DNA from: an uncultured Methanospirillum sp.
GTDB lineage: Archaea; Halobacteriota; Methanomicrobia; Methanomicrobiales; Methanospirillaceae
DNA length: 62,087 bases
Direction of reading: 5' to 3'
NCBI GenBank assembly: GCA_964637135.1
Contig: CAZWTX010000005.1
Coordinates: 62,001-124,087, forward strand
Shown piece by piece: positions 48,560 to 61,116 of this stretch; the first letter of the stretch is position 1, and every line of letters begins with the position of its first letter. The position numbers and the translations under genes were made by a program. The notes below the pieces were generated by a model. It was given only the letters and a program-made list of their open reading frames with translations. It made no database searches and was not told the DNA's origin.

Positions 48560-49720
48560 ATGGACTCTTTAGAGAGTCATATGATATCGGAGCAGTGTCT
48601 GCAGTACCAGATCCGGATACAGGATCTCGAATCACAGAACCTTGAGCTCTCGATTCGTGCAGAAGAACTGATAAAAGAAAATACCGTTCTCAAACGGGAG
48701 AATAATCAGCTGAAGCGAATGCCGCTCTTTGTCGCTTCAGTGGTGGATGTCTTCTCCAATGGCGAAATTTACCTCCGCCAGATGGGGAACAACCAGGAGT
48801 ACATCACAATTATCGCAGATGAACTGCGTCCGCTCATCAAGGCAGGCTCAAAAGTTGCCGTAAACAATGCCCTCTCCGTGGTTAAGGTTCTTGAAGAGAC
48901 ATATGATACCCGGGTGAGAGTGATGGAGCTGGAAGAGTCACCGGAAGTCACCTTTGAACATATCGGGGGTCTTTCCAACGAAATCGAGGAAGTTCGCGAG
49001 GCAGTCGAGTACCCCCTCACCAGACCTGAGGTATTCGAACGGATCGGCGTCGAACCTCCCAAAGGGATTCTTCTCTTTGGTCCGCCGGGTACTGGAAAAA
49101 CCCTCATCGCGAAGGCAGTCGCGCATAATGCAAAAGCAACATTCATCAGGATGAGCGGGAGTGAACTGGTCCACAAATACATCGGAGAAGGGGCACAGAT
49201 GGTCAGGGAACTCTTCACCCTTGCACGGGACCGGGCTCCTTCCATTGTCTTCATCGACGAGATCGACGCCATCGGATCGACCCGGACAAATGACGGAACC
49301 TCAGGCAGTGCCGAAGTACAGCGAACCCTGATGCAACTCCTGGCCGAGATGGACGGGTTTGACAACCGGGGAGATGTCAGGATCATGGCTGCAACAAACC
49401 GGGTTGACATGCTTGATGCCGCCCTGCTCAGGCCCGGACGGTTTGACCGGGTCATTGAGATACCGCTCCCTGACGAATCTTCACGGCTTGAAATCCTGAA
49501 GATCCATACCAGGCGGATGTCACTTGATGAAGTCAACCTTGATACACTGAAAGACCAGACCGCAGAACTGACTGGCGCCCAAATCCAGGCGGTCTGCAGA
49601 GAAGCAGGTATGTTTGCGGTCAGGAAGAATGCATTCCATGTTGCGATGAACGACTTTACCGACGCCATCGCCAAGATCCGGCGTGCGGGTCCGGAATCTG
49701 AAGAGAGGATGTTCCTGTAA
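48560..49720 (+). CDS. pan: Proteasome-activating nucleotidase (copy 1)
   Basis: N-terminal coiled coil, [26 protein letters not shown]-terminus MFL. Confidence 0.92.
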   Translation: MDSLESHMISEQCLQYQIRIQDLESQNLELSIRAEELIKENTVLKRENNQLKRMPLFVASVVDVFSNGEIYLRQMGNNQEYITIIADELRPLIKAGSKVAVNNALSVVKVLEETYDTRVRVMELEESPEVTFEHIGGLSNEIEEVREAVEYPLTRPEVFERIGVEPPKGILLFGPPGTGKTLIAKAVAHNAKATFIRMSGSELVHKYIGEGAQMVRELFTLARDRAPSIVFIDEIDAIGSTRTNDGTSGSAEVQRTLMQLLAEMDGFDNRGDVRIMAATNRVDMLDAALLRPGRFDRVIEIPLPDESSRLEILKIHTRRMSLDEVNLDTLKDQTAELTGAQIQAVCREAGMFAVRKNAFHVAMNDFTDAIAKIRRAGPESEERMFL

Positions 49721-51191: not shown

Positions 51192-52430
51192 TCATGCAAA
51201 CATCTCTGATGCCGTGGTAAGACGGTGATCCCGCTCGAAATCTAGACGGAATTTATCAAGGGCCATCATGAAATCCGCGTGGCTGATCTTGGGATGCTCC
51301 TGTCTGATTGCAAACATACCGGCTTCCATGCATATTGCATTGAGATCAGCCCCGTTTCTTCCTTCTGTCAGCCGGGCCACCTCCATCATGTCAGCATCAT
51401 CGGCAAGATTCATTCCGCGGGTATGCACCTTCAGAATAGCATAACGCCCTTCAGTATCCGGCAGGGGTATCTCGATGATGCGATCAAACCGGCCTGGCCT
51501 GAGCAGGGCAGCATCAAGAATATCAATCCGGTTGGTGGCTCCGATGATCTTGACATCACCACGCTGTTCAAATCCATCCATCGCAGCAAGCAGCTGCATC
51601 AATGTCCGTTGCACCTCGCGATCGCCGGATGTCATGGCCTCGGTTCGTGATGCACCAATTGCATCGATCTCGTCGATAAAAACAATGGATGGTGCCTTGT
51701 CTTTCGCCAGGTCGAACAGTTCACGCACCAGCCGGGCTCCCTCACCGATGTATTTCTGGACGAGTTCTGATCCGACCGTGTGAAGGAAACAGGCATGGGT
51801 TTCATGTGCAACCGCCTTTGCGAGGAGGGTCTTCCCGGTACCGGGCGGACCAAAGAGGAGAACACCTTTTGGCGGACTGATCCCGATATTCTCGAAGAGT
51901 TCGGGTCGTGTCATCGGGAGTTCTACAGCCTCCCTGATCTCGAGGATCTGCTTCTCAAGTCCGCCAATATCTTCGTAGGTCTCGGTTGGGAGTTCTTCAA
52001 CCTCCATGCCGTATACCTGGGAGTCGTAACTGCTCGGGAGAACCTCAACAATGGCAAGTGACTGTTGGTTGAGGGTACATCTGACACCTGCCTTGATCTG
52101 GTCAGGATTGACTGACTGGGAGACCCGTACGAGGAACCGGGGTCCGGCACTTGATCTCACGACTACCCGGCTCGTATCAATGATGTCAGTGATGGTTCCG
52201 ACAATCAACGGAGGGGTCTTCAGATGTTCGATCTCACTCTTCAGCTTCCTGACTTCCCGCTCGTATCGGATCTTCTGGGTTTCAATATATCGCTTGTCAG
52301 ATTCCAGTTGCCGTATCTGCTCTTTTAATTCCTGATTCTGGGACTCCATCCCGGACACCCGTTCTATCAGGTACCGGTAGAGTTCTTCAGGCGTTTTCGG
52401 GTCCTCTGGCTGTCGCACTGTATCTGACAT
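51192..52430 (-). CDS. pan: Proteasome-activating nucleotidase (copy 2, more canonical)
   Basis: Coiled coil, [38 protein letters not shown]-terminus MFA. Confidence 0.95.
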
Positions 52431-52479
52431 CGGTCAATTAGTTATATAGGGGTAAGTGACTATATGATGATTGCGAAAA

Positions 52480-52980
52480 ATGCAATGTGAAATGTGTGGG
52501 GCCGATATTAAAGGGCCTGTCAGACGTATCCGTACAGAAGGCACCGAGTTATCTGTCTGTAATAATTGTGTTAAATTCGGTGTTGAAATTCATGCTGCAC
52601 CAAAGACGCCATCAGGCGCAGCAGGCAGAATATCTCCATCCCATGCATCGGCAGTTCCCCCGGCAAGAAAACCAAGGGATTTCTTTGACCAGATGGGTGG
52701 TGAACTCGCTGAAGATTATGCAGAGCGGATCCGGACAGCCAGGATGAAACTCGGGATGACCCAGAAGGATCTCGCACTGGCAATGATGGAAAAAGAACTC
52801 CTCATAAAAAAACTGGAAAAAGGAGAACTGATTCCTGAAGATGATGTCCGGAAAAAACTTGAAAAAGCACTCAGTATATCCCTGCTGGAGAGTACTGACA
52901 TGGACGTTCAGGATCTCCATCACACCCGTCTGACCACGACGATGGGCGATGTGATCAAGATCAAGAAGGCAAAGAAGTAA
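52480..52980 (+). CDS. Archaeal multiprotein bridging factor 1 (Zn ribbon + HTH)
   Basis: MQCEMCG...VCNNCVKFG, IRTARMKLGMTQKDLA, TMGDVIKIK; divergent from pan as is typical. Confidence 0.93.
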   Translation: MQCEMCGADIKGPVRRIRTEGTELSVCNNCVKFGVEIHAAPKTPSGAAGRISPSHASAVPPARKPRDFFDQMGGELAEDYAERIRTARMKLGMTQKDLALAMMEKELLIKKLEKGELIPEDDVRKKLEKALSISLLESTDMDVQDLHHTRLTTTMGDVIKIKKAKK

Positions 52981-53060
52981 TCTTTTTTTCTGCGTGAGCA
53001 GAGATTGATTTATAAAGGGATAAAGAATGCCATGCCATATCATGGCACGGGAACATAACC

Positions 53061-53069
53061 CTTATATTA
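53061..53069 (+). promoter_or_regulatory. Candidate TATA box of the aromatic operon leader
   Basis: CTTATATTA about 24 nt upstream of the leader ATG at 53091, consistent with a nearly leaderless transcript; a second TTTATAAA lies at 53009-53016. Confidence 0.5.
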
Positions 53070-53090: not shown

Positions 53091-53282
53091 ATGAATATCT
53101 CCCGGATTAACCGGCCTGCGGGTATGCCTGCATGGAGCGGAGCGGACGGGTGTCATTCAGTACCAGGGGATTTGCCCATGCAGAAGACGGACCATAGTCT
53201 GTTGGGGATTAATCCGGATATTTCTGTACGGTTTTTCTTTTTCCTGTTTTTCTTTTCGTATTTTACGTATTTCTGGTGCTAA
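53091..53282 (+). CDS. Putative aromatic-amino-acid leader peptide (63 aa; 34 aa if started at 53178)
   Basis: Ends VRFFFFLFFFSYFTYFWC-stop, 35 nt before the first aromatic biosynthesis gene. Confidence 0.7.
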   Translation: MNISRINRPAGMPAWSGADGCHSVPGDLPMQKTDHSLLGINPDISVRFFFFLFFFSYFTYFWC

Positions 53283-53315
53283 TCGGATCATCCGACACCA
53301 GATTGGAGTGATCTG
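53272..53315 (+). promoter_or_regulatory. Alternative hairpins (SD sequestrator vs anti-sequestrator)
   Basis: TCTGGTG(53272-78)/CACCAGA(53296-302) with inner TCGGA/TCCGA competes with CGGATCATCCGA(53284-95)/TTGGAGTGATCTG(53303-15), which covers the SD GGAGTGA. Confidence 0.6.
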
Positions 53316-53317
53316 TT

Positions 53318-54118
53318 ATGAGAGGTAAAGATATCAGACTTGAAAGAATCATGAACCGGAACACGAAAAAGACCATCATCGTCCCGATGGATCACGGCGT
53401 CAGCTCAGGACCTATCGACGGCCTGATCAACATGGGGGAAGCCGTGAATGCGGTGGCTGAAGGGGGAGCAAATGCCGTGATCGGTCATGTCGGACTTGCC
53501 CTGCACGGGCACCGGCAACAGGGCCACGATATCGGACTAATCCTGCACCTTTCGGCATCAACTGCCATCAGTCCCGATCCAAACGAGAAGGTCCTCGTGA
53601 ATACAGTCACCAATGCAATTAAAATGGGGGCCGATGCCATCTCCATGCATGTAAATATCGGGGCGGATTCCGAGGCACAGATGCTTTCAGATCTCGGCAG
53701 GGTTGCCATCGAGTGCATGGAATGGGGGATGCCGCTCCTCGCAATGATGTACCCGAGAGGGAGAAAAATCACCGATGAACATGACGTCGATCAGGTAAAA
53801 CTTGCCGCACGGGTTGCTGCTGAACTCGGGGCAGATCTCGTGAAGACAAATTACACCGGGGACCCGGACTCGTTCAGGATTGTTACGAAGGGATGTCCGG
53901 TTCCGGTGGTGGTAGCGGGGGGTTCCAAGACCGATGATCTGACCACCCTGACCCTTATCGAAGGAGCAATGGAGGGCGGTGCAGCCGGAATATCCATCGG
54001 ACGCAATGCCTTCCAGCATCCGAACCCTGCTGCATTCGTGCGTGCATGTGCCAGGATCATCCATGAAGGGATGACCGCAGAAGAATCAGTTGAGATACTC
54101 AGGAGTGAAGGATTATGA
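53318..54118 (+). CDS. 2-amino-3,7-dideoxy-D-threo-hept-6-ulosonate (ADH) synthase / DhnA-type class I aldolase, copy 1
   Basis: [40 protein letters not shown]. Confidence 0.9.
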
Positions 54119-54891
54119 TCGGAAAAGAGATTCGGATTGAGCGGATTATGGACCGGAACACCGGCAAGACGGTGATTATTCCCATGGACCACGGGATGAC
54201 CCTTGGTCAGATAGACGGATTGCTGAACATGAACGAGACGATCTCCGATGTATCAGACGGGGGAGCAAATGCCATCATCCTCCACAAGGGTCTGGTAAAA
54301 CGCGGACACCGGCGAAAAGGGCGTGATATCGGATTGATAATTCACCTTTCTACCGGAACAAGCATGAATCCGGATCCCAACGACAAGGTACTTACCTGTA
54401 CGGTCGAGGAAGCAATATCCCTCGGTGCCGACGCGGTATCCATTCACATCAACCTCGGGGCAGCACAGGAGTCACGGATGCTTGAATCAGCTGGAAGGGT
54501 TGTTCATGACTGTAACCGGTGGGGAATTCCGCTCCTGGCAATGGTTTACCCGCGGGGCAACGGGATAAATCCGACCGATCCGAGGCATGTTGGTCATGCG
54601 GTCAGGGTAGCCGAGGAACTTGGGGCAGATCTCGTGAAGACGAATTACACCGGGGATCCCGAATCGTTCAGGAAGATCGTTCAGGCATCTTCGATTCCGG
54701 TTCTGATCGCCGGAGGAGAGAAGGCCGGGGATCTCGAAACCCTTCAGACCATTCGAGATGCTGCCCACGTATCCTTGTGCTCGGGCGTATGTATGGGAAG
54801 AAATGCCTTCCAGCGGAACGATGTTGCAGCCTTCGTATCAAAGGTCTGCAGGGTCGTTCATGAAGGAACCGATCCGGAGTCGCTTGCATGA
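54115..54891 (+). CDS. ADH synthase / DhnA-type class I aldolase, copy 2
   Basis: [40 protein letters not shown]. Confidence 0.9.
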
Positions 54892-55874
54892 AAAAACTCT
54901 TTGTGGATGCACGACCATGGGACAAGGAACTCGTGGTAACCGCCCTTGAATCAGGGGCAGACGGAGTATTCGTAGAATCCGCAGAACCGGTGAGTGATCT
55001 CGGGAAGATCCTGACCATTGCTCCGGACGGGGATCTCATCCCCGGAACAGATATCCACGAGATAACCATCTCGTCAACAGAGGAGCAGGAAATTGCGATG
55101 GAACTCGCAAAAAGAGGTGCCATCATCGTTCATACCCCTGACTGGACGATCATCCCGCTTGAAAACCTCGTAGCCGTCGGAAGAGAAGTCATTGCATCGG
55201 TAACAACCCGTGAAGAGGCAGTAACAGCACTCACCATTCTTGAGCACGGGGTATCCGGCGTTCTCGTGAAAACGAGTGATCCGGATGTTATCCGGGATAT
55301 TGCCAGCCTTATCCAGCAGGAGACCTGCCGGATCCCTCTTGTTCCGCTGACAGTCCGTTCTGTTCAGCCTGCCGGGATGGGAGACCGGGTCTGCGTTGAT
55401 ACCTGCACGATGATGCAGGATGGCGATGGGATGCTCGTTGGAAACACCTCATCCGGGCTTGTCCTGGTCCATGCAGAGACCCTCGACAACCCGTATGTCG
55501 CATCCCGTCCCTTCAGGGTGAATGCCGGGGCTGTTCATTCATATCTCCAGGTTCCTGACGGAAAAACAGCATACCTGGCAGACATCAGGACCGGGAACAA
55601 GACCCTCATCATCCATGCTGACGGATCCTGCCGGATCAGCACGGTCGGACGGGTGAAGATAGAACGGCGACCCCTCCTCCTTGTTGAAGCGGAATACCAG
55701 GGCAGGCAGGTCTCGGCAATCCTTCAGAATGCCGAGACAATACGGGTGGCCCAGCCGGGAGGAGGAGCACTCCCGGTAACGAAACTCTCCCCGGGAGACA
55801 CCATTCTCGGGCTTGTCATGGAGGGTGGCCGGCATTTCGGAATGGCAGTCAGGGAGACCATTCTCGAGAAATGA
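54888..55874 (+). CDS. 3-dehydroquinate synthase II (archaeal type)
   Basis: DWTIIPLENL, GDRVCVD, RPFRVNAGAVHSY, GRVKIERRPL, LQNAETIR, RHFGMAVRETILEK. Confidence 0.95.
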   Translation: MKKLFVDARPWDKELVVTALESGADGVFVESAEPVSDLGKILTIAPDGDLIPGTDIHEITISSTEEQEIAMELAKRGAIIVHTPDWTIIPLENLVAVGREVIASVTTREEAVTALTILEHGVSGVLVKTSDPDVIRDIASLIQQETCRIPLVPLTVRSVQPAGMGDRVCVDTCTMMQDGDGMLVGNTSSGLVLVHAETLDNPYVASRPFRVNAGAVHSYLQVPDGKTAYLADIRTGNKTLIIHADGSCRISTVGRVKIERRPLLLVEAEYQGRQVSAILQNAETIRVAQPGGGALPVTKLSPGDTILGLVMEGGRHFGMAVRETILEK

Positions 55875-56698
55875 TGATAGCAGGAATTATCGGGGGAACC
55901 GGCGGGATGGGCAGTTTTTTCGCCGATGTATTTAAAAAAGCAGGGTGGGAGGTACTCATCTCCGGAAGAAAAACAGAACTGACCACCGAAGATCTGGTTT
56001 CGCAGGCAGATCTTGTTATGATCTCGGTCCCGATCCGTGAGACCGTCCGGGTAATCGAATCGGTTATTCCGTACCTCCGCAGAGATCAGATCCTCACTGA
56101 TCTCACATCCATGAAGATAGAACCGGTCAGAGCGATGCTTCAATCGCCTGCCGAGGTCATTGGTCTTCACCCCATGTTCGGTCCGTCGGTATCCTCCCTT
56201 GCCGGGCAGACAATTGTTGCCACACCGGTCAGGGCGAAACCGGAGACATTCACCCGGATAATGAATGTGTTTGAACACCAGGGGGCCAGGATTACCGTAT
56301 CAACACCGGAAGAACATGACCGGATGATGGCAGTAATCCAGGGGCTGACACATTTCAAGGCCATCGTTCTTGCAGGGGCGATGAGACGGCTCGGTGTTTC
56401 TCCGGCAGAAACCGAACCGTTCATGAGTCCGGTGTACCGGATAGAGACGGGTATTGCCGGAAGACTGCTGGCACAAAGCCCTGAACTCTATGCAGATATC
56501 CTGACTAATAACCCGGAAGTCCCGAAAACACTCAGAACATGTATTCAGGCAGCAGAAGAACTCCTTTCCATCATTGAGACGAAGAACGTTCCAGGATTTG
56601 AACATGAATTCCTTCTGAACCGGGAATGGTTCGGTGATTATTGCAGGCGATCCCTTGATGAGACAAACCATATCATCGATCGGATGGTGAAGGAGTGA
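55871..56698 (+). CDS. tyrA: Prephenate dehydrogenase
   Basis: GIIGGTGGMG, DLTSMK, HPMFGP, EEHDRMMAVIQGLTH. Confidence 0.93.
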   Translation: MMIAGIIGGTGGMGSFFADVFKKAGWEVLISGRKTELTTEDLVSQADLVMISVPIRETVRVIESVIPYLRRDQILTDLTSMKIEPVRAMLQSPAEVIGLHPMFGPSVSSLAGQTIVATPVRAKPETFTRIMNVFEHQGARITVSTPEEHDRMMAVIQGLTHFKAIVLAGAMRRLGVSPAETEPFMSPVYRIETGIAGRLLAQSPELYADILTNNPEVPKTLRTCIQAAEELLSIIETKNVPGFEHEFLLNREWFGDYCRRSLDETNHIIDRMVKE

Positions 56699-57489
56699 CC
56701 CTGATCACCCTTGGTCCCGAAGGGACGTTTTCCCATATCCTCGCAGAAATGATCGATGAGGAAGTCATTCTCGTTCCGACCATCGGACAGGTATTCAGGG
56801 AAGTTGTGAATACCGGAATCCCCGGGCTCGTTCCCCTAGAGAACATCGAAGCCGGAAGCGTTGCAGCAACCCTTGACGGTTTGCTTCAGTATGAGGTCTC
56901 AATCACCCGTGATGCATACCTGCCGGTTCATCATACTCTGGCCTCAGAGGGTCAGTTCAACGAGATCAGGGTAATCTATGCCCATCCACAGAGCCATGAA
57001 CAATGCAGCAGGAAGATAGAGGAACTCGGGATACCGGTTATTCACACCGTGAGTAATGCGGCGAGTGCGGCTGAAGCAGCAAAAAACCCGGATTCAGGCG
57101 CAATCATTTCATCACTGCTTGCCGAAAAGTACCATCTCACCGTTCATGAGGACCGGATCGAGAATAATCCTGCCAACCAGACACGGTTCATCATCATTGA
57201 AAAAGAGCCGGCAGTCATGGATAATCCGCAAAAATGCAGTCTCATTGTCGATCCCGGGGAGAATCGTGCAGGCCTTCTTTACGATCTTCTCCTTCCCTTC
57301 AAGGAAGGAAATGTCAACCTGGCGAGAATTGAATCACGACCCTCAAAACGAAGCATGGGTAGTTACATATTTTTCCTTGACCTGAACTGTGCCGGGGAAT
57401 GGACCCGGGCAATAGATCAACTCTCACAGCTGACCACGGTCAGGCACCTCGGATGTTACCGGACCTGGGAAGGTGAGAGATGGAAGTAA
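56695..57489 (+). CDS. pheA: Prephenate dehydratase (with ACT domain, no chorismate mutase domain)
   Basis: LGPEGTFS, VPLEN, HPQ...QC, NQTRF, NLARIESRPS. Confidence 0.94.
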   Translation: MTLITLGPEGTFSHILAEMIDEEVILVPTIGQVFREVVNTGIPGLVPLENIEAGSVAATLDGLLQYEVSITRDAYLPVHHTLASEGQFNEIRVIYAHPQSHEQCSRKIEELGIPVIHTVSNAASAAEAAKNPDSGAIISSLLAEKYHLTVHEDRIENNPANQTRFIIIEKEPAVMDNPQKCSLIVDPGENRAGLLYDLLLPFKEGNVNLARIESRPSKRSMGSYIFFLDLNCAGEWTRAIDQLSQLTTVRHLGCYRTWEGERWK

Positions 57490-58754
57490 CCATGGGTAAG
57501 TGCCGGCCGGTCCGGGGGACCATCCGGGCTCCCCCTTCAAAAAGTTACACCCACCGGGCACTCATTCTTGCCGGCCTTGCAGACGGACCTTCATGCATCA
57601 CCGGTCAGCTTGATGCAGATGATACCCGGATGACGGCACGTGCGCTCATGTCACTCGGGGTCAGGATCGACTGGTCGCAGGATACTATAATGGTTCATGG
57701 CAGGGGGAACCATCTCACCAGTCCTGCATCAGCGATTGATACCGGTGATTCCGGAACGACAATGCGGCTGATGACTGCGGTATCACTCCTCGCCGATCAA
57801 CCGGTTATTCTGACCGGGAGTTCCCGGATGAAAGAGCGTCCGATTGGGACACTGGTAAATGCGCTGAACCAGTCCGGTGCAGAGATAACGTTTCTGGAAA
57901 ATGAGGGATTCCCGCCGATCCGGATCTCTGGACACCTTACTGGAGGCGTGATCACCATCGACGGAAGTATCTCAAGCCAGTTCATATCCTCACTTCTCAT
58001 CGCTTCTCCGTATGCCAGCAATGATACTGAGATTCGAATCACCGGTAACCCGGTCTCCACCCCATACATCTGCCTGACACTCCGGATGATGGAAGTGTTC
58101 GGGGTTGGGGTCAGGAATGATTCGGATACCCGGTTCCTGATCAGTGCAGGACAGCATTACCAGCCGGTATCATACCGGGTTGAAGGAGATTATTCTTCGG
58201 TATCCTACTGGCTGGCTCTTGCTGCCGTTACCGGGGGATCAATCCGGGTGACCGGCCTGAATCAGGATTCCCTCCAGGGAGATCGCCGGATCCTCGACAT
58301 CCTTGTCGCCATGGGCTGCCATGCTGACTGGGACGGGGAGGATCTCCTCTTCTCAGGGGGAAACCTGACCGGGATCGAGGTTTCCATGGATGATTGTCCG
58401 GATATCATCCAGACCATCAGTATCGTTGCCGCCTGTGCAACCGGCCCGTCCACGATTCGCGGGATCCACCATCTTCGATCAAAAGAGAGTGACCGGGTTG
58501 AAGCGATCCGAAAAGGTCTATCTGATCTCGGGGGTGAAGTTATGGTATCTCAGGACTGGCTGACCGTTCAACCACGACCACTTCACGGAGGGGTGATCCA
58601 TGCCCGGAACGATCACCGGACTGCCATGAGTTTCGCAATACTCGGCTGTGCCATCGGTGGTGTTACGATCCTTGATGCCGGATGTGTATCCAAATCATAC
58701 CCTGAATTCTGGAAGGAGCTGAACAAGATATGGCAGACCGCCGAATCGTGCTGA
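57480..58754 (+). CDS. aroA: 3-phosphoshikimate 1-carboxyvinyltransferase (EPSP synthase)
   Basis: PPSKSYTHRA, SGTTMR, SSQFISSLL, KESDR, DHRTAMS, KSYPEF. Confidence 0.96.
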   Translation: MEVTMGKCRPVRGTIRAPPSKSYTHRALILAGLADGPSCITGQLDADDTRMTARALMSLGVRIDWSQDTIMVHGRGNHLTSPASAIDTGDSGTTMRLMTAVSLLADQPVILTGSSRMKERPIGTLVNALNQSGAEITFLENEGFPPIRISGHLTGGVITIDGSISSQFISSLLIASPYASNDTEIRITGNPVSTPYICLTLRMMEVFGVGVRNDSDTRFLISAGQHYQPVSYRVEGDYSSVSYWLALAAVTGGSIRVTGLNQDSLQGDRRILDILVAMGCHADWDGEDLLFSGGNLTGIEVSMDDCPDIIQTISIVAACATGPSTIRGIHHLRSKESDRVEAIRKGLSDLGGEVMVSQDWLTVQPRPLHGGVIHARNDHRTAMSFAILGCAIGGVTILDAGCVSKSYPEFWKELNKIWQTAESC

Positions 58755-60112
58755 TCGGGTACCGGGGGACCGGAAAAACCACCTTGTCAGCTCTCCTCCA
58801 GGAGCGGCTTGGCAGAACTGGTACAGATACCGATCACCTCATAGAAGAGAAAGCAGGGCGGGCCATTGCAGATATTTTTTCAGAATATGGTGAGCAGCGG
58901 TTCAGGGAGATGGAGGAAGAGGTCATCAGAACCCTTCCCGGAGATATGATGATTATCAGCACGGGAGGCGGGGCAGTACTGAACCCGGTAAATGTCGCTT
59001 CCCTGAGAAGAGACAGCCTGATGATCTACCTCGATGCTGATCCAGGGGTCATTGCGGAGAGAATTTCCGGATCAGGCAGACCATCCCTGACCGGCAGACC
59101 TCCCGAAGAGGAAGTGAGATCAGTCCTTGCAGACCGCCTTTCGGCATACCGGAGTGCTGCTGATGTGAGGGTAGACACTTCCGCAGCCTCCCCGGATGAG
59201 AGCGTCATAGAGATCATGGCGTACCTCACCCATGGCCCTGGGAAGGCAGATGCACGATCTGATCTCATATCAGCCGTACAAAATACCCAAATACCCCAAA
59301 CCGAACAGCAGATCCTTGATATAATAAAGGCCCGGAATGATATCATCCTGTACGGTATTCTGGGAAACCCATGCATGCACAGCCTTTCCCCACGAATCTG
59401 GAATCGTCTCTTCCATGAATACCGGATGCCTGCTCATTACACCTGGTTTGAAATGCCTGATCCGGGTGTTTTTCTGGAACGCGCCTCTGATGCAGGAATA
59501 CGCGGACTTTCCGTGACCATCCCCCATAAGGAGACAATCATACCATATTTATCTGAAGTCAGGCATGATGCATCAACGATCGGGGCAGTAAACACGGTAC
59601 TCATCCAGGACGGGAAAACATTCGGGTACAATACCGACTGGAAGGGGGTATACCGGCCACTCGAAGGTGCCGGAGGAGAGAAGGCGGTAATTATCGGGGC
59701 AGGAGGGGGTGCAGCCGCTGCAGCATATGCACTGGACATGCGGGGATATTCGACGTACATCCTGAACCGGACGGTGGAACGGGCAGAGAACCTTGCTGCA
59801 CGATTTGGTGCTGAAGCCGGTCCGGTATCGCTTGTTGAATCACTCCGTCCCGATCTGATCGTCAATACGACACCGATCGGCATGGGAAATGACTCGAGGA
59901 TTCCCGTACCGCTTTCAGTCCTGAAACCAGGAGTCAGGGTCTTTGATTTCGTATACACCCCGGCAGATACTCCCCTCCTCAGGGCAGCCCTTGAGCGGGG
60001 ATGTTTCGTTATCCCGGGTACCGAGATGTTCATCCACCAGCTTGCTGAACAGTTTAAAATCCTCACTGGGATCGAGGTTCCGACCAACCATATCAGGGAA
60101 ATGATGTCATGA
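58730..60112 (+). CDS. Bifunctional shikimate kinase (bacterial AroK type) - shikimate dehydrogenase (AroE) fusion
   Basis: N-part LIGYRGTGKTT, FREME, STGGG, GRPSL; C-part GNPCMHSLSP, SVTIPHKE, GAVNT, YNTDW, GAGG, NRT, NTTPIGM. Confidence 0.93.
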   Translation: MADRRIVLIGYRGTGKTTLSALLQERLGRTGTDTDHLIEEKAGRAIADIFSEYGEQRFREMEEEVIRTLPGDMMIISTGGGAVLNPVNVASLRRDSLMIYLDADPGVIAERISGSGRPSLTGRPPEEEVRSVLADRLSAYRSAADVRVDTSAASPDESVIEIMAYLTHGPGKADARSDLISAVQNTQIPQTEQQILDIIKARNDIILYGILGNPCMHSLSPRIWNRLFHEYRMPAHYTWFEMPDPGVFLERASDAGIRGLSVTIPHKETIIPYLSEVRHDASTIGAVNTVLIQDGKTFGYNTDWKGVYRPLEGAGGEKAVIIGAGGGAAAAAYALDMRGYSTYILNRTVERAENLAARFGAEAGPVSLVESLRPDLIVNTTPIGMGNDSRIPVPLSVLKPGVRVFDFVYTPADTPLLRAALERGCFVIPGTEMFIHQLAEQFKILTGIEVPTNHIREMMS

Positions 60113-61116
60113 ACACCTTCGGTTCACGATTCAGGATCACCACCTTTGGTGAAAGCCATGGTAAGGCAATTGGAGTGGTCATCGACGGATGCCCTGCCGG
60201 CATACCCCTTACTCCTGCAGATATCCAGCCGTTCCTGGATCGACGCCGACCGGGTTCATCAGACCTGGTAACCCCGCGTAAGGAAGCAGACCGGGTAGAG
60301 ATTATGAGCGGAGTTTTTGAGGATACCACCATCGGAACTCCGGTTGCCCTGCTGATAGCAAATACCTCGATGCAATCAGGTGATTACGAGGCATTCAGAT
60401 CTGTTTTCCGCCCTGGACATGCTGATTTCACGTACCAGGCAAGATACGGAATCCGTGACCACCGTGGAGGTGGACGCAGTTCAGGACGTGAGACTGCTGC
60501 CCGGGTCGCGGCAGGAGCCGTTGCCATATCATGTCTCAACCGGCGGGGTATTACTCTGTCCGGCAGGATTACAGAGATCCATGGCATCCGGGAACCCGCC
60601 CGGTATGAAGATGAGATACGCCAGGCAATCGCAGACGGGGACTCGGTCGGGGGTATTATTGAGATCAGGATCGCCGGATGTCCGCCGGGAATCGGGGATC
60701 CGGTCTTTGGAAAACTCGATGCCCTGTTTGCGTATGCCATGATGAGTGTCGGGGGAGTAAAAGGGATCGGGATCGGAAGCGGGTTTGATGCAGCACGGAT
60801 GCGGGGATCAGAACACAACGATCCCATTCTCCCGGACGGTTTCGGATCAAACCATGCAGGGGGGATTCTCGGGGGGATATCCACGGGCCAGGATATCATC
60901 ATAACCCTTGCTGTAAAACCCACGCCATCTATCAGAAAAGAACAGCAGACCATTGACCGGGCAAAAAACCCGGTGACAATATCGGTGAACGGACGGCACG
61001 ATCCCTGCATCGCCCTGAGAATCGTCCCGGTTGCCGAAGCAATGGCAGCCCTCGTCCTCATGGACGCCATCATGCAGTACGATGCAGACATCCCCTGGAG
61101 AGAGGAAGGAACCTGA
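60109..61116 (+). CDS. aroC: Chorismate synthase
   Basis: TTFGESHG, RPGHAD, GGGRSSGRET, NHAGGILGGIS, GRHDPC. Confidence 0.97.
   Translation: MNTFGSRFRITTFGESHGKAIGVVIDGCPAGIPLTPADIQPFLDRRRPGSSDLVTPRKEADRVEIMSGVFEDTTIGTPVALLIANTSMQSGDYEAFRSVFRPGHADFTYQARYGIRDHRGGGRSSGRETAARVAAGAVAISCLNRRGITLSGRITEIHGIREPARYEDEIRQAIADGDSVGGIIEIRIAGCPPGIGDPVFGKLDALFAYAMMSVGGVKGIGIGSGFDAARMRGSEHNDPILPDGFGSNHAGGILGGISTGQDIIITLAVKPTPSIRKEQQTIDRAKNPVTISVNGRHDPCIALRIVPVAEAMAALVLMDAIMQYDADIPWREEGT

Follow-up and report, generated by a model that had tools for sequence, protein, structure and literature searches.

Does the short open reading frame (ORF) in front of the aromatic amino-acid operon of an uncultured Methanospirillum sp. 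report on the supply of aromatic amino acids and, if so, how does the signal reach the operon? We examined this question in a window of 62,087 nucleotides (the whole stretch of DNA that was analysed); by ADH synthase, its nearest named relatives are Methanospirillum, at 82–84% identity. The first-pass annotation of this DNA had read the ORF as a ribosome-stalling sensor of Phe, Tyr and Trp. That reading is supported, with refinements: sensing of Phe and Tyr is well supported by a conserved frame and conserved codons, we infer the stalling and the regulation, and sensing of Trp is doubtful. The locus very probably carries a codon-level aromatic sensor of some kind. We prefer, with a probability of about 70%, a more specific reading, in which the leader is conserved and its Phe/Tyr-rich tail senses supply through ribosome stalling and controls translation of the first operon gene.

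An aromatic-rich leader precedes the operon

The features of the leader and its surroundings are as follows.
52471–52980, plus strand: aMBF1, the upstream gene (context); TIGR00270, above cut-off
53062–53069, plus strand: TATA-like box, with a spacing compatible with a leaderless or nearly leaderless mRNA
53091–53282, plus strand: leader ORF of 63 codons, from the ORF list; its peptide has no NCBIfam match
53232–53276, plus strand: aromatic codon tract, the predicted sensor, with 9 Phe, 2 Tyr and 1 Trp in 15 codons
53305–53311, plus strand: site read from the sequence, which from general knowledge of archaeal sites we take to be the Shine–Dalgarno (SD)-like site of the first operon gene
53318–61116, plus strand: aromatic amino-acid operon (two ADH synthases, DHQ synthase II, tyrA, pheA, aroA, aroK-aroE and aroC), from ORFs and NCBIfam

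The sequence confirmed the leader as first annotated, with its aromatic codons in one frame and 35 nt between its stop and the operon start codon, ATG 53318. Among 9,261 intergenic ATG frames of the genome, ranked on the basis of crude gene calls, the tract came first, with 12 of 15 codons aromatic against 8 for the runner-up. Its last 12 codons include 8 aromatic ones, compared with 4.6 for the best frame of base shuffles (p = 0.004). None of 60 TATA-led upstream ORFs (uORFs) in the genome, again from crude gene calls, was a comparable codon-specific leader. A profile search with the leader peptide found just two further copies of the same leader, called as proteins in public collections, and an Rfam search gave a single chance-level match (16 bits against a cut-off of 60); no curated leader family fits.

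The operon, too, was borne out as running from ADH synthase to aroC with pheA and tyrA. NCBIfam assigned its eight ORFs to two ADH synthases, DHQ synthase II, prephenate dehydrogenase, prephenate dehydratase, AroA, a shikimate kinase–AroE fusion and AroC, the dehydrogenase and dehydratase being best matches under the curated cut-offs. Neither dehydroquinate dehydratase nor chorismate mutase was among these eight by NCBIfam. The genes overlap one another by 4–23 nt, and the tandem ADH synthase paralogs are 56% identical.

A TATA-like box had been placed about 24 nt before the leader ATG. The box is present, but its position is corrected to 53062–53069, with its first T 29 nt and its last base about 21 nt upstream. 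The distance from first T to ATG is 29–31 nt in 26 of 27 leaders of relatives that have the same in-frame layout (below), and the called genes of the genome show a modest TATA-like peak at 27–31 nt. This spacing would fit an mRNA start at or just before ATG 53091. The second in-frame ATG that had been noted, at 53178, exists but is unconserved, an internal ATG being absent from 12 of the 27 in-frame leaders; we rejected it as the true start, and comparison of the sequences suggests that it is probably irrelevant.

Six metatranscriptome runs, stored as contigs, contained 8–15% of the window's words. A 152-nt contig of X6 matches 53180–53331 exactly; such contigs give no ends, strand or level, and could originate from DNA. 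For the relative L010, contigs of X1 and X4, both from L010:1390, run from the leader interior through the tract into ADH synthase, and another contig crosses the promoter. We count none of these contigs in favour of the leader.

Conservation in two architectures across Methanomicrobiales

Of 148 ADH synthase loci gathered, 126 were unique; without L022 and L082, whose sequences were too short, 124 remained. Adding 20 from genera that were unsampled or did not have the slip-site pattern described below gave 144 testable loci. A leader start near a TATA-like box was found at all 144. A clear aromatic-rich frame, ending 32–230 nt before the gene, was present at 143; the tract of L052 is weak or unclear. 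Twenty ADH synthase loci outside the order had no such leader, with at most 6 of 15 codons aromatic.

Two architectures account for these loci. In 42, including the window (27, L035 and 14 added loci), the TATA-proximal ATG is in the frame of the tract, which in L035 lies 206 nt upstream of the gene. In the other 102 (96 and 6 added), the first ATG opens a frame of 14–26 codons and the tract is in the +1 frame. The first-pass annotation had proposed looking in this order for a conserved in-frame aromatic ORF with synonymous variation upstream of ADH synthase; the aromatic tract, with synonymous and Phe/Tyr variation, is in frame with the start in one group and in the +1 frame in the other. When the ATG was chosen blindly by its distance from the TATA-like box, the 101 of 124 loci with a single candidate gave frame 0 in 24 cases, +1 in 73 and +2 in 4. 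The phase of the tract relative to the start is kept over 8 lengths of in-frame leaders and 23 lengths of two-frame leaders, although kin are not independent. In the stretch from start region to tract, stops are absent from the tract frame of the 27 in-frame leaders and number 38 and 21 in the other two frames, which is partly so by construction; in 95 two-frame leaders, from which L052 was left out for its unclear tract, the counts are 0 versus 128 and 95, and here not by construction.

Two loci from records labelled as bacteria, L059 and L090, have both operon and leader; the tree places them within Methanomicrobiales, and they are probably mis-binned contigs. The ADH synthase and leader end (F-W-F-R-Q-stop) of genus g23 (L236 and L237) group with those of genus g10 (L035, L242 and L243), which belongs to another family, while the rest of g23's family is placed elsewhere on the tree; transfer of operon and leader is possible.

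A putative +1 frameshift in the two-frame relatives

How would ribosomes reach a tract that is out of frame with the first ATG? The short first frame has YUU-UUY at 96 of 96 loci; YUU-UAY, which 95 of the 96 also have, is six codons away. At these sites the A-site codons vary synonymously, and the P-site codon is always YUU, never UUC. The pattern of the two sites occurs in 72 of 89 genomes of the order, once per genome but for one, and a reversed control never matches; searches of 311 other genomes in the phylum and of viral contigs found none. The window's own leader and genome do not have it. The checked genera without this module have in-frame leaders, several of which still start with MCGE or MRGEC. 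On an ADH synthase tree of 59 rows, the architecture changes six times, five of them forced by strong branches, and placing all in-frame rows in a single clade is rejected (p-AU 2e-32). Single-frame versions such as that of the window may therefore have been gained or lost in at least five lineage switches. We rejected an outgroup rooting of this tree; the distant outgroup landed inside the window's genus, and the root is unreliable.

CUU_U and UUU_U are known +1 sites, and ermCL frameshifting opens a sequestered start, according to the available text of PMC5009743. Because of these known sites, the YUU-U conservation, the in-frame leaders where the sites are lost and the repeated switches, we favour a +1 shift triggered by starvation: in most other Methanomicrobiales the tract is most likely reached only in the +1 frame, by slipping at hungry Phe or Tyr codons. 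Taken together, we lean, if only slightly, towards a ribosome-based aromatic switch that most often takes the form of a programmed +1 frameshift, set off by starvation at one of two tandem YUU-U sites. In the usual course, translation would end after about 15 codons; if Phe- or Tyr-tRNA ran short, ribosomes would slip at either site, enter the second frame and stall on the aromatic tract, and the operon start would be opened.

The +1 frame of the two-frame relatives might instead be entered by an internal GUG or AUG start, a less likely but real rival. All 96 loci do have an RTG in the +1 frame, three codons upstream of the first slippery site. However, the GTG of the 15-codon type is about 7 nt from the predicted 5' end, has no SD before it and lies inside a predicted hairpin, and the unvarying YUU at the P site also speaks against an internal start. 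Moreover, where the slip sites are lost, it is the first ATG, often the old MCGE or MRGEC start, that is in the tract frame, at least five times on the tree.

A GUGA-like word precedes both slip sites by 4 nt; it also fits a start codon or a hairpin arm, and is presumably about 4 nt further off than the prfB stimulator. The 5' hairpin of two-frame leaders showed no two-sided change among 10 rows, one of which was on the wrong strand. Loci with first frames of 20–22 codons (L053, L060, L063 and L098–L142) have an extra 18-nt unit resembling the two slip modules, which suggests tandem module duplication.

Competing helices over the start of the operon

Three helices were predicted between tract and operon start.
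53245–53333, plus strand: predicted OFF duplex of ribosome-free RNA, in which the tract (53245–53266) pairs with the SD/start region (53308–53333) and encloses hairpin A; from folding, z −2.9
53272–53302, plus strand: hairpin A, the last codons and stop paired with the spacer, which keeps the anti-SD off the SD; from folding and covariation
53284–53315, plus strand: hairpin B, the anti-SD paired with the SD, mutually exclusive with A; from folding and covariation

We assessed hairpins A and B in alignment A1, which holds 24 distinct sequences (L026 and L027 excluded, the window row off by one column). For hairpin A, 90.7% of cells were paired, against 20–55% in slid controls, and 21 cells showed two-sided changes against 7.6 in shuffles; for hairpin B, 89.9% were paired, against 30–49%, and two-sided changes fell in 5 of 8 pairs. 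These counts include related sequences, which inflates them. The OFF duplex comes from folding rather than covariation, because both its strands are coding. Folding gave three states: the tract:SD/start duplex with A; A alone, with the start largely open; and B once A is unzipped. It is covariation and modelling that support a structure burying the SD and start and freed by ribosome position. The two-hairpin switch is absent from 3 of the 27 in-frame loci (L026, L027 and L045).

The position of a ribosome on the tract changed the modelled cost of opening the ribosome-binding site (RBS), calculated with 37 °C parameters and an assumed footprint, here 9 nt, in modelling that covered the in-frame loci other than L026 and L027. 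For the window, this cost is about 11 kcal/mol in ribosome-free RNA, 4.7–6.8 when codons −12 to −6 (counted from the stop) occupy the A site, 9–10.8 at codons −5 to −2 and about 6–6.7 at the stop. The rise from −7 to −3 exceeds that of spacer shuffles in 24 of 27 in-frame loci; in the window it is 4.3 against −1.3 ± 1.8 kcal/mol. Availability of the tract adds more than 1 kcal/mol to the modelled opening cost in 26 of 27 loci, and 6.7 in the window. For two-frame leaders the modelled opening is mixed, the median falling from about 10 to 6.4–7.6 kcal/mol at the last two or three codons and only there.

These data suggest the following sequence of events. The mRNA would begin at or just before ATG 53091, as its TATA spacing indicates, and ribosomes would load there. 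When Phe and Tyr are plentiful, they would pass through the tract, unzip hairpin A and leave, so that the SD and start codon would be buried by hairpin B and then by the tract:start duplex; covariation shows hairpins A and B, and the dynamics are our proposal. When charged tRNA-Phe or tRNA-Tyr is short, a ribosome would dwell at codons about −12 to −6, mask the tract and leave hairpin A in place, lowering the computed opening cost from about 11 to about 5 kcal/mol and allowing ADH synthase to be translated. The downstream genes may follow through translational coupling and FttA polarity, to judge from the available parts of PMC12548453 and PMC13681488. The output is thus most likely, on modelling, control of translation initiation by competing helices rather than a terminator of the pheL or trpL type. 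No plus-strand terminator-like site (hairpin plus U-run) was found in 53091–53318, where the U-run precedes the hairpin and is inside the ORF; we accordingly rejected a pheL-type terminator.

The same codon sensor could have a transcriptional output, an unlikely alternative in which the U-rich tract is a loading site for FttA (aCPSF1) that a stalled ribosome would cover, letting RNA polymerase continue into the operon. FttA prefers U-rich nascent RNA and is described as analogous to Rho in the available text of PMC13681488; the tract prefers UUU to UUC by 109 to 28, and some two-frame leaders show little modelled SD sequestration. Such loading would leave two covarying, SD-targeting helices unexplained, although FttA may act additionally, as polarity. 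Much less probable is constitutive translational coupling, whereby the leader would only deliver ribosomes, or melt hairpin B at its stop, and sense nothing. A ribosome at the stop does also cut the opening cost, to about 6 kcal/mol, and delivery by uORFs is a proposed mechanism (PMC12548453, available text). Coupling of this kind needs no aromatic codons, however, and the gaps of 32–230 nt exceed the re-initiation limit of about 30 nt given in the part of that review available.

Selection on frame and codons

The tract itself fits codon-level sensing. Changes at its aromatic positions are mostly synonymous or exchange Phe and Tyr. In the last 12 codons of in-frame leaders, 8 aromatic codons were observed against a median of 4.7 for the best of three frames in base shuffles (p < 0.01 in 27 of 27), and in two-frame leaders 7 against 3.7 (p < 0.05 in 90 of 95), in a control that leaves out selection of the best stop among several. 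Tyr and Trp together have a median of 3 in these codons and 1.3 in shuffles. By contrast with the conserved tail, the peptide body varies equally at all three codon positions, with 18–29% identity, and all three stop codons are in use. Selection is on the frame and the codons, to judge from these sequences, not on the peptide or on U-richness alone; the leader peptide is probably a by-product. A T-tract conserved in relatives without a frame or start, which would have told against the first-pass reading, is not what we see, since frame, start position, stop and aromatic codons are all kept.

It is therefore hard to credit that the product works as a small peptide through an aromatic C terminus that binds membranes or an enzyme. 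Its C-terminal F-W is invariant in 14 aligned in-frame peptides, where M, F and W alone do not vary, and two copies have been called as proteins in public collections; yet the body is poorly conserved and has no codon-position bias, hairpin A constrains the W-Y-stop codons, and the tail is out of frame with the first ATG in 102 loci. Least probable of all is a non-coding element with incidental Phe codons, whether a structural RNA or a U-tract that terminates the aMBF1 transcript: U-rich DNA does give Phe codons by default (4–5 of 12 in the best shuffled frame), but this would not account for the frame, the stop avoidance, the Tyr/Trp enrichment or the phase kept over 31 lengths, and aMBF1 already has a T-run of its own immediately 3' of its stop.

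Trp and the trpE upstream ORF

The leader contains a Trp codon, but whether it senses Trp is doubtful, for four reasons: this codon lies within hairpin A; what a Trp stall would do in the model varies with the assumed footprint; among 95 two-frame leaders, 39 lack Trp throughout the final 20 codons; and a separate uORF with a Trp codon is conserved at trpE. For a 9-nt footprint, the model predicts that ribosomes stalled at codons −5 to −2 leave the switch OFF, so the single Trp codon may not give an ON state; with a 15-nt footprint, a Trp (−2) stall in the window is modelled as partly open, at 6.7 kcal/mol.

The trpE uORF, with its single Trp codon (M-P-V/L-E/D-W, then 0–6 codons), runs across the start of trpE at 26 of 30 trpE loci, and TrpE is read in the −1 frame relative to it. 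It is found at about 1490–1560 of L154 (G000:C4 near 118898–118945, minus strand) and in L155–L182. A TATA-led ATG lies in frame 8–14 codons upstream in 19 of the 26, and the stop overlaps an ATG or GTG in 17 of the 26. On this sequence evidence it is a candidate for a separate Trp sensor; the genome holds no second credible case of the motif.

A candidate operator upstream of the promoter

One further feature lies upstream of the TATA-like box.
53028–53047, no strand: inverted repeat with 6-bp arms and an 8-bp spacer; candidate operator for a DNA-binding regulator, a putative function

Of the 27 in-frame loci, 19 have a repeat of this kind, placed −62 to −65 (or −20) relative to the leader ATG; none of the 96 two-frame loci has one. 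The copy in the window has a 5-nt periodicity; in L026 and L027 the repeat lies between TATA and ATG. Loosely similar palindromes occur upstream of ADH synthase in L200, L202 and L203, outside the order. The genome has no second close copy, the remaining matches being at control level. Because the candidate operator adjoins the promoter, part of any response could lie at transcription initiation. Upstream of aMBF1, two genes close to each other (48560–49720 and 51192–52430) encode AAA ATPases, which we take to be proteasome-activating nucleotidase-like.

Relation to known systems

The E. coli trpL leader is a transcription attenuator that combines end-product codons in a leader ORF with alternative hairpins. 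E. coli pheL-pheA likewise has runs of end-product codons in a leader ORF before a biosynthetic operon and alternative hairpins, and frameshifting in pheL is reported as incidental (PMC3082878, available text). The locus described here shares with this class the codon-rich leader and the mutually exclusive hairpins, and differs in having no hairpin-plus-U terminator after the ORF, no Rfam match, helices that target the SD and a leader of 41–73 codons rather than about 15.

A closer likeness is to the mycobacterial poly-Cys leaderless short-ORF attenuators, for example Ms5788A (described in the available text of 10.1101/834739). These are uORFs with end-product codons at the 3' end, and their tract is predicted to form base pairs with the SD region of the gene that follows, with a translational output and downstream polarity; the leaderless start is a prediction in our case, and regulation has been demonstrated there and is proposed here. 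Our leader differs in its archaeal host, in using Phe/Tyr/Trp rather than Cys codons, in its extra competing hairpin pair and in its longer, unconserved body, and we claim no sequence relationship. Of the hallmarks of the poly-Cys and ermCL class, it has 3' sensor codons in a conserved frame and, by covariation and modelling, a releasable structure that buries the SD. The two-frame relatives have some of those of programmed +1 shifts, namely a shift-prone P-site codon followed by U and then a slow codon, an open +1 frame and in-frame relatives. Unlike ermCL and the +1 shifts of the prfB and Ty1 type (PMC5009743, available text), the proposed trigger is amino-acid limitation rather than an antibiotic or a release factor, and there are two tandem sites, for Phe and for Tyr; the window leader has no such site.

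The archaeal TrpY and Tar are DNA-binding regulators of aromatic or trp genes (PMC6737238, available text). They act on the same pathway as the leader, and the candidate operator shares the geometry of Tar sites (a 6-8-6 palindrome upstream of TATA); its arms differ from the Tar consensus. In Methanothermobacter, a Met-Trp minigene has reportedly been proposed before trpY; it has two codons and controls a regulator gene, unlike the operon leader here.

Implications

A literature search, mainly of titles and abstract openings in the open literature, returned no description of this element or of an archaeal amino-acid leader attenuator. Papers on archaeal Ribo-seq and uORFs mention uORFs without an assigned sensing role in their main text as available (PMC7261190, PMC11456600 and PMC11549558), and their supplements may list candidates. 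The element is a real, order-wide one and an archaeal variant of leader-peptide attenuation, with a frameshift-gated form that is likely in relatives. An order-wide codon-sensing leader, if true, would extend leader-peptide attenuation to the third domain. It also offers a natural test bed for transcription–translation coupling and FttA polarity; the available text of PMC13681488 describes direct evidence from archaea here as scarce. The available text of a 2016 review knew of no example of starvation-specific trans-frame products with a novel function (PMC5009743). The two-frame form, if true, would put hungry-codon frameshifting to productive use in sensing a nutrient and would make such frameshifting testable as a regulatory device, for which the paired single-frame and two-frame versions are ready-made controls.
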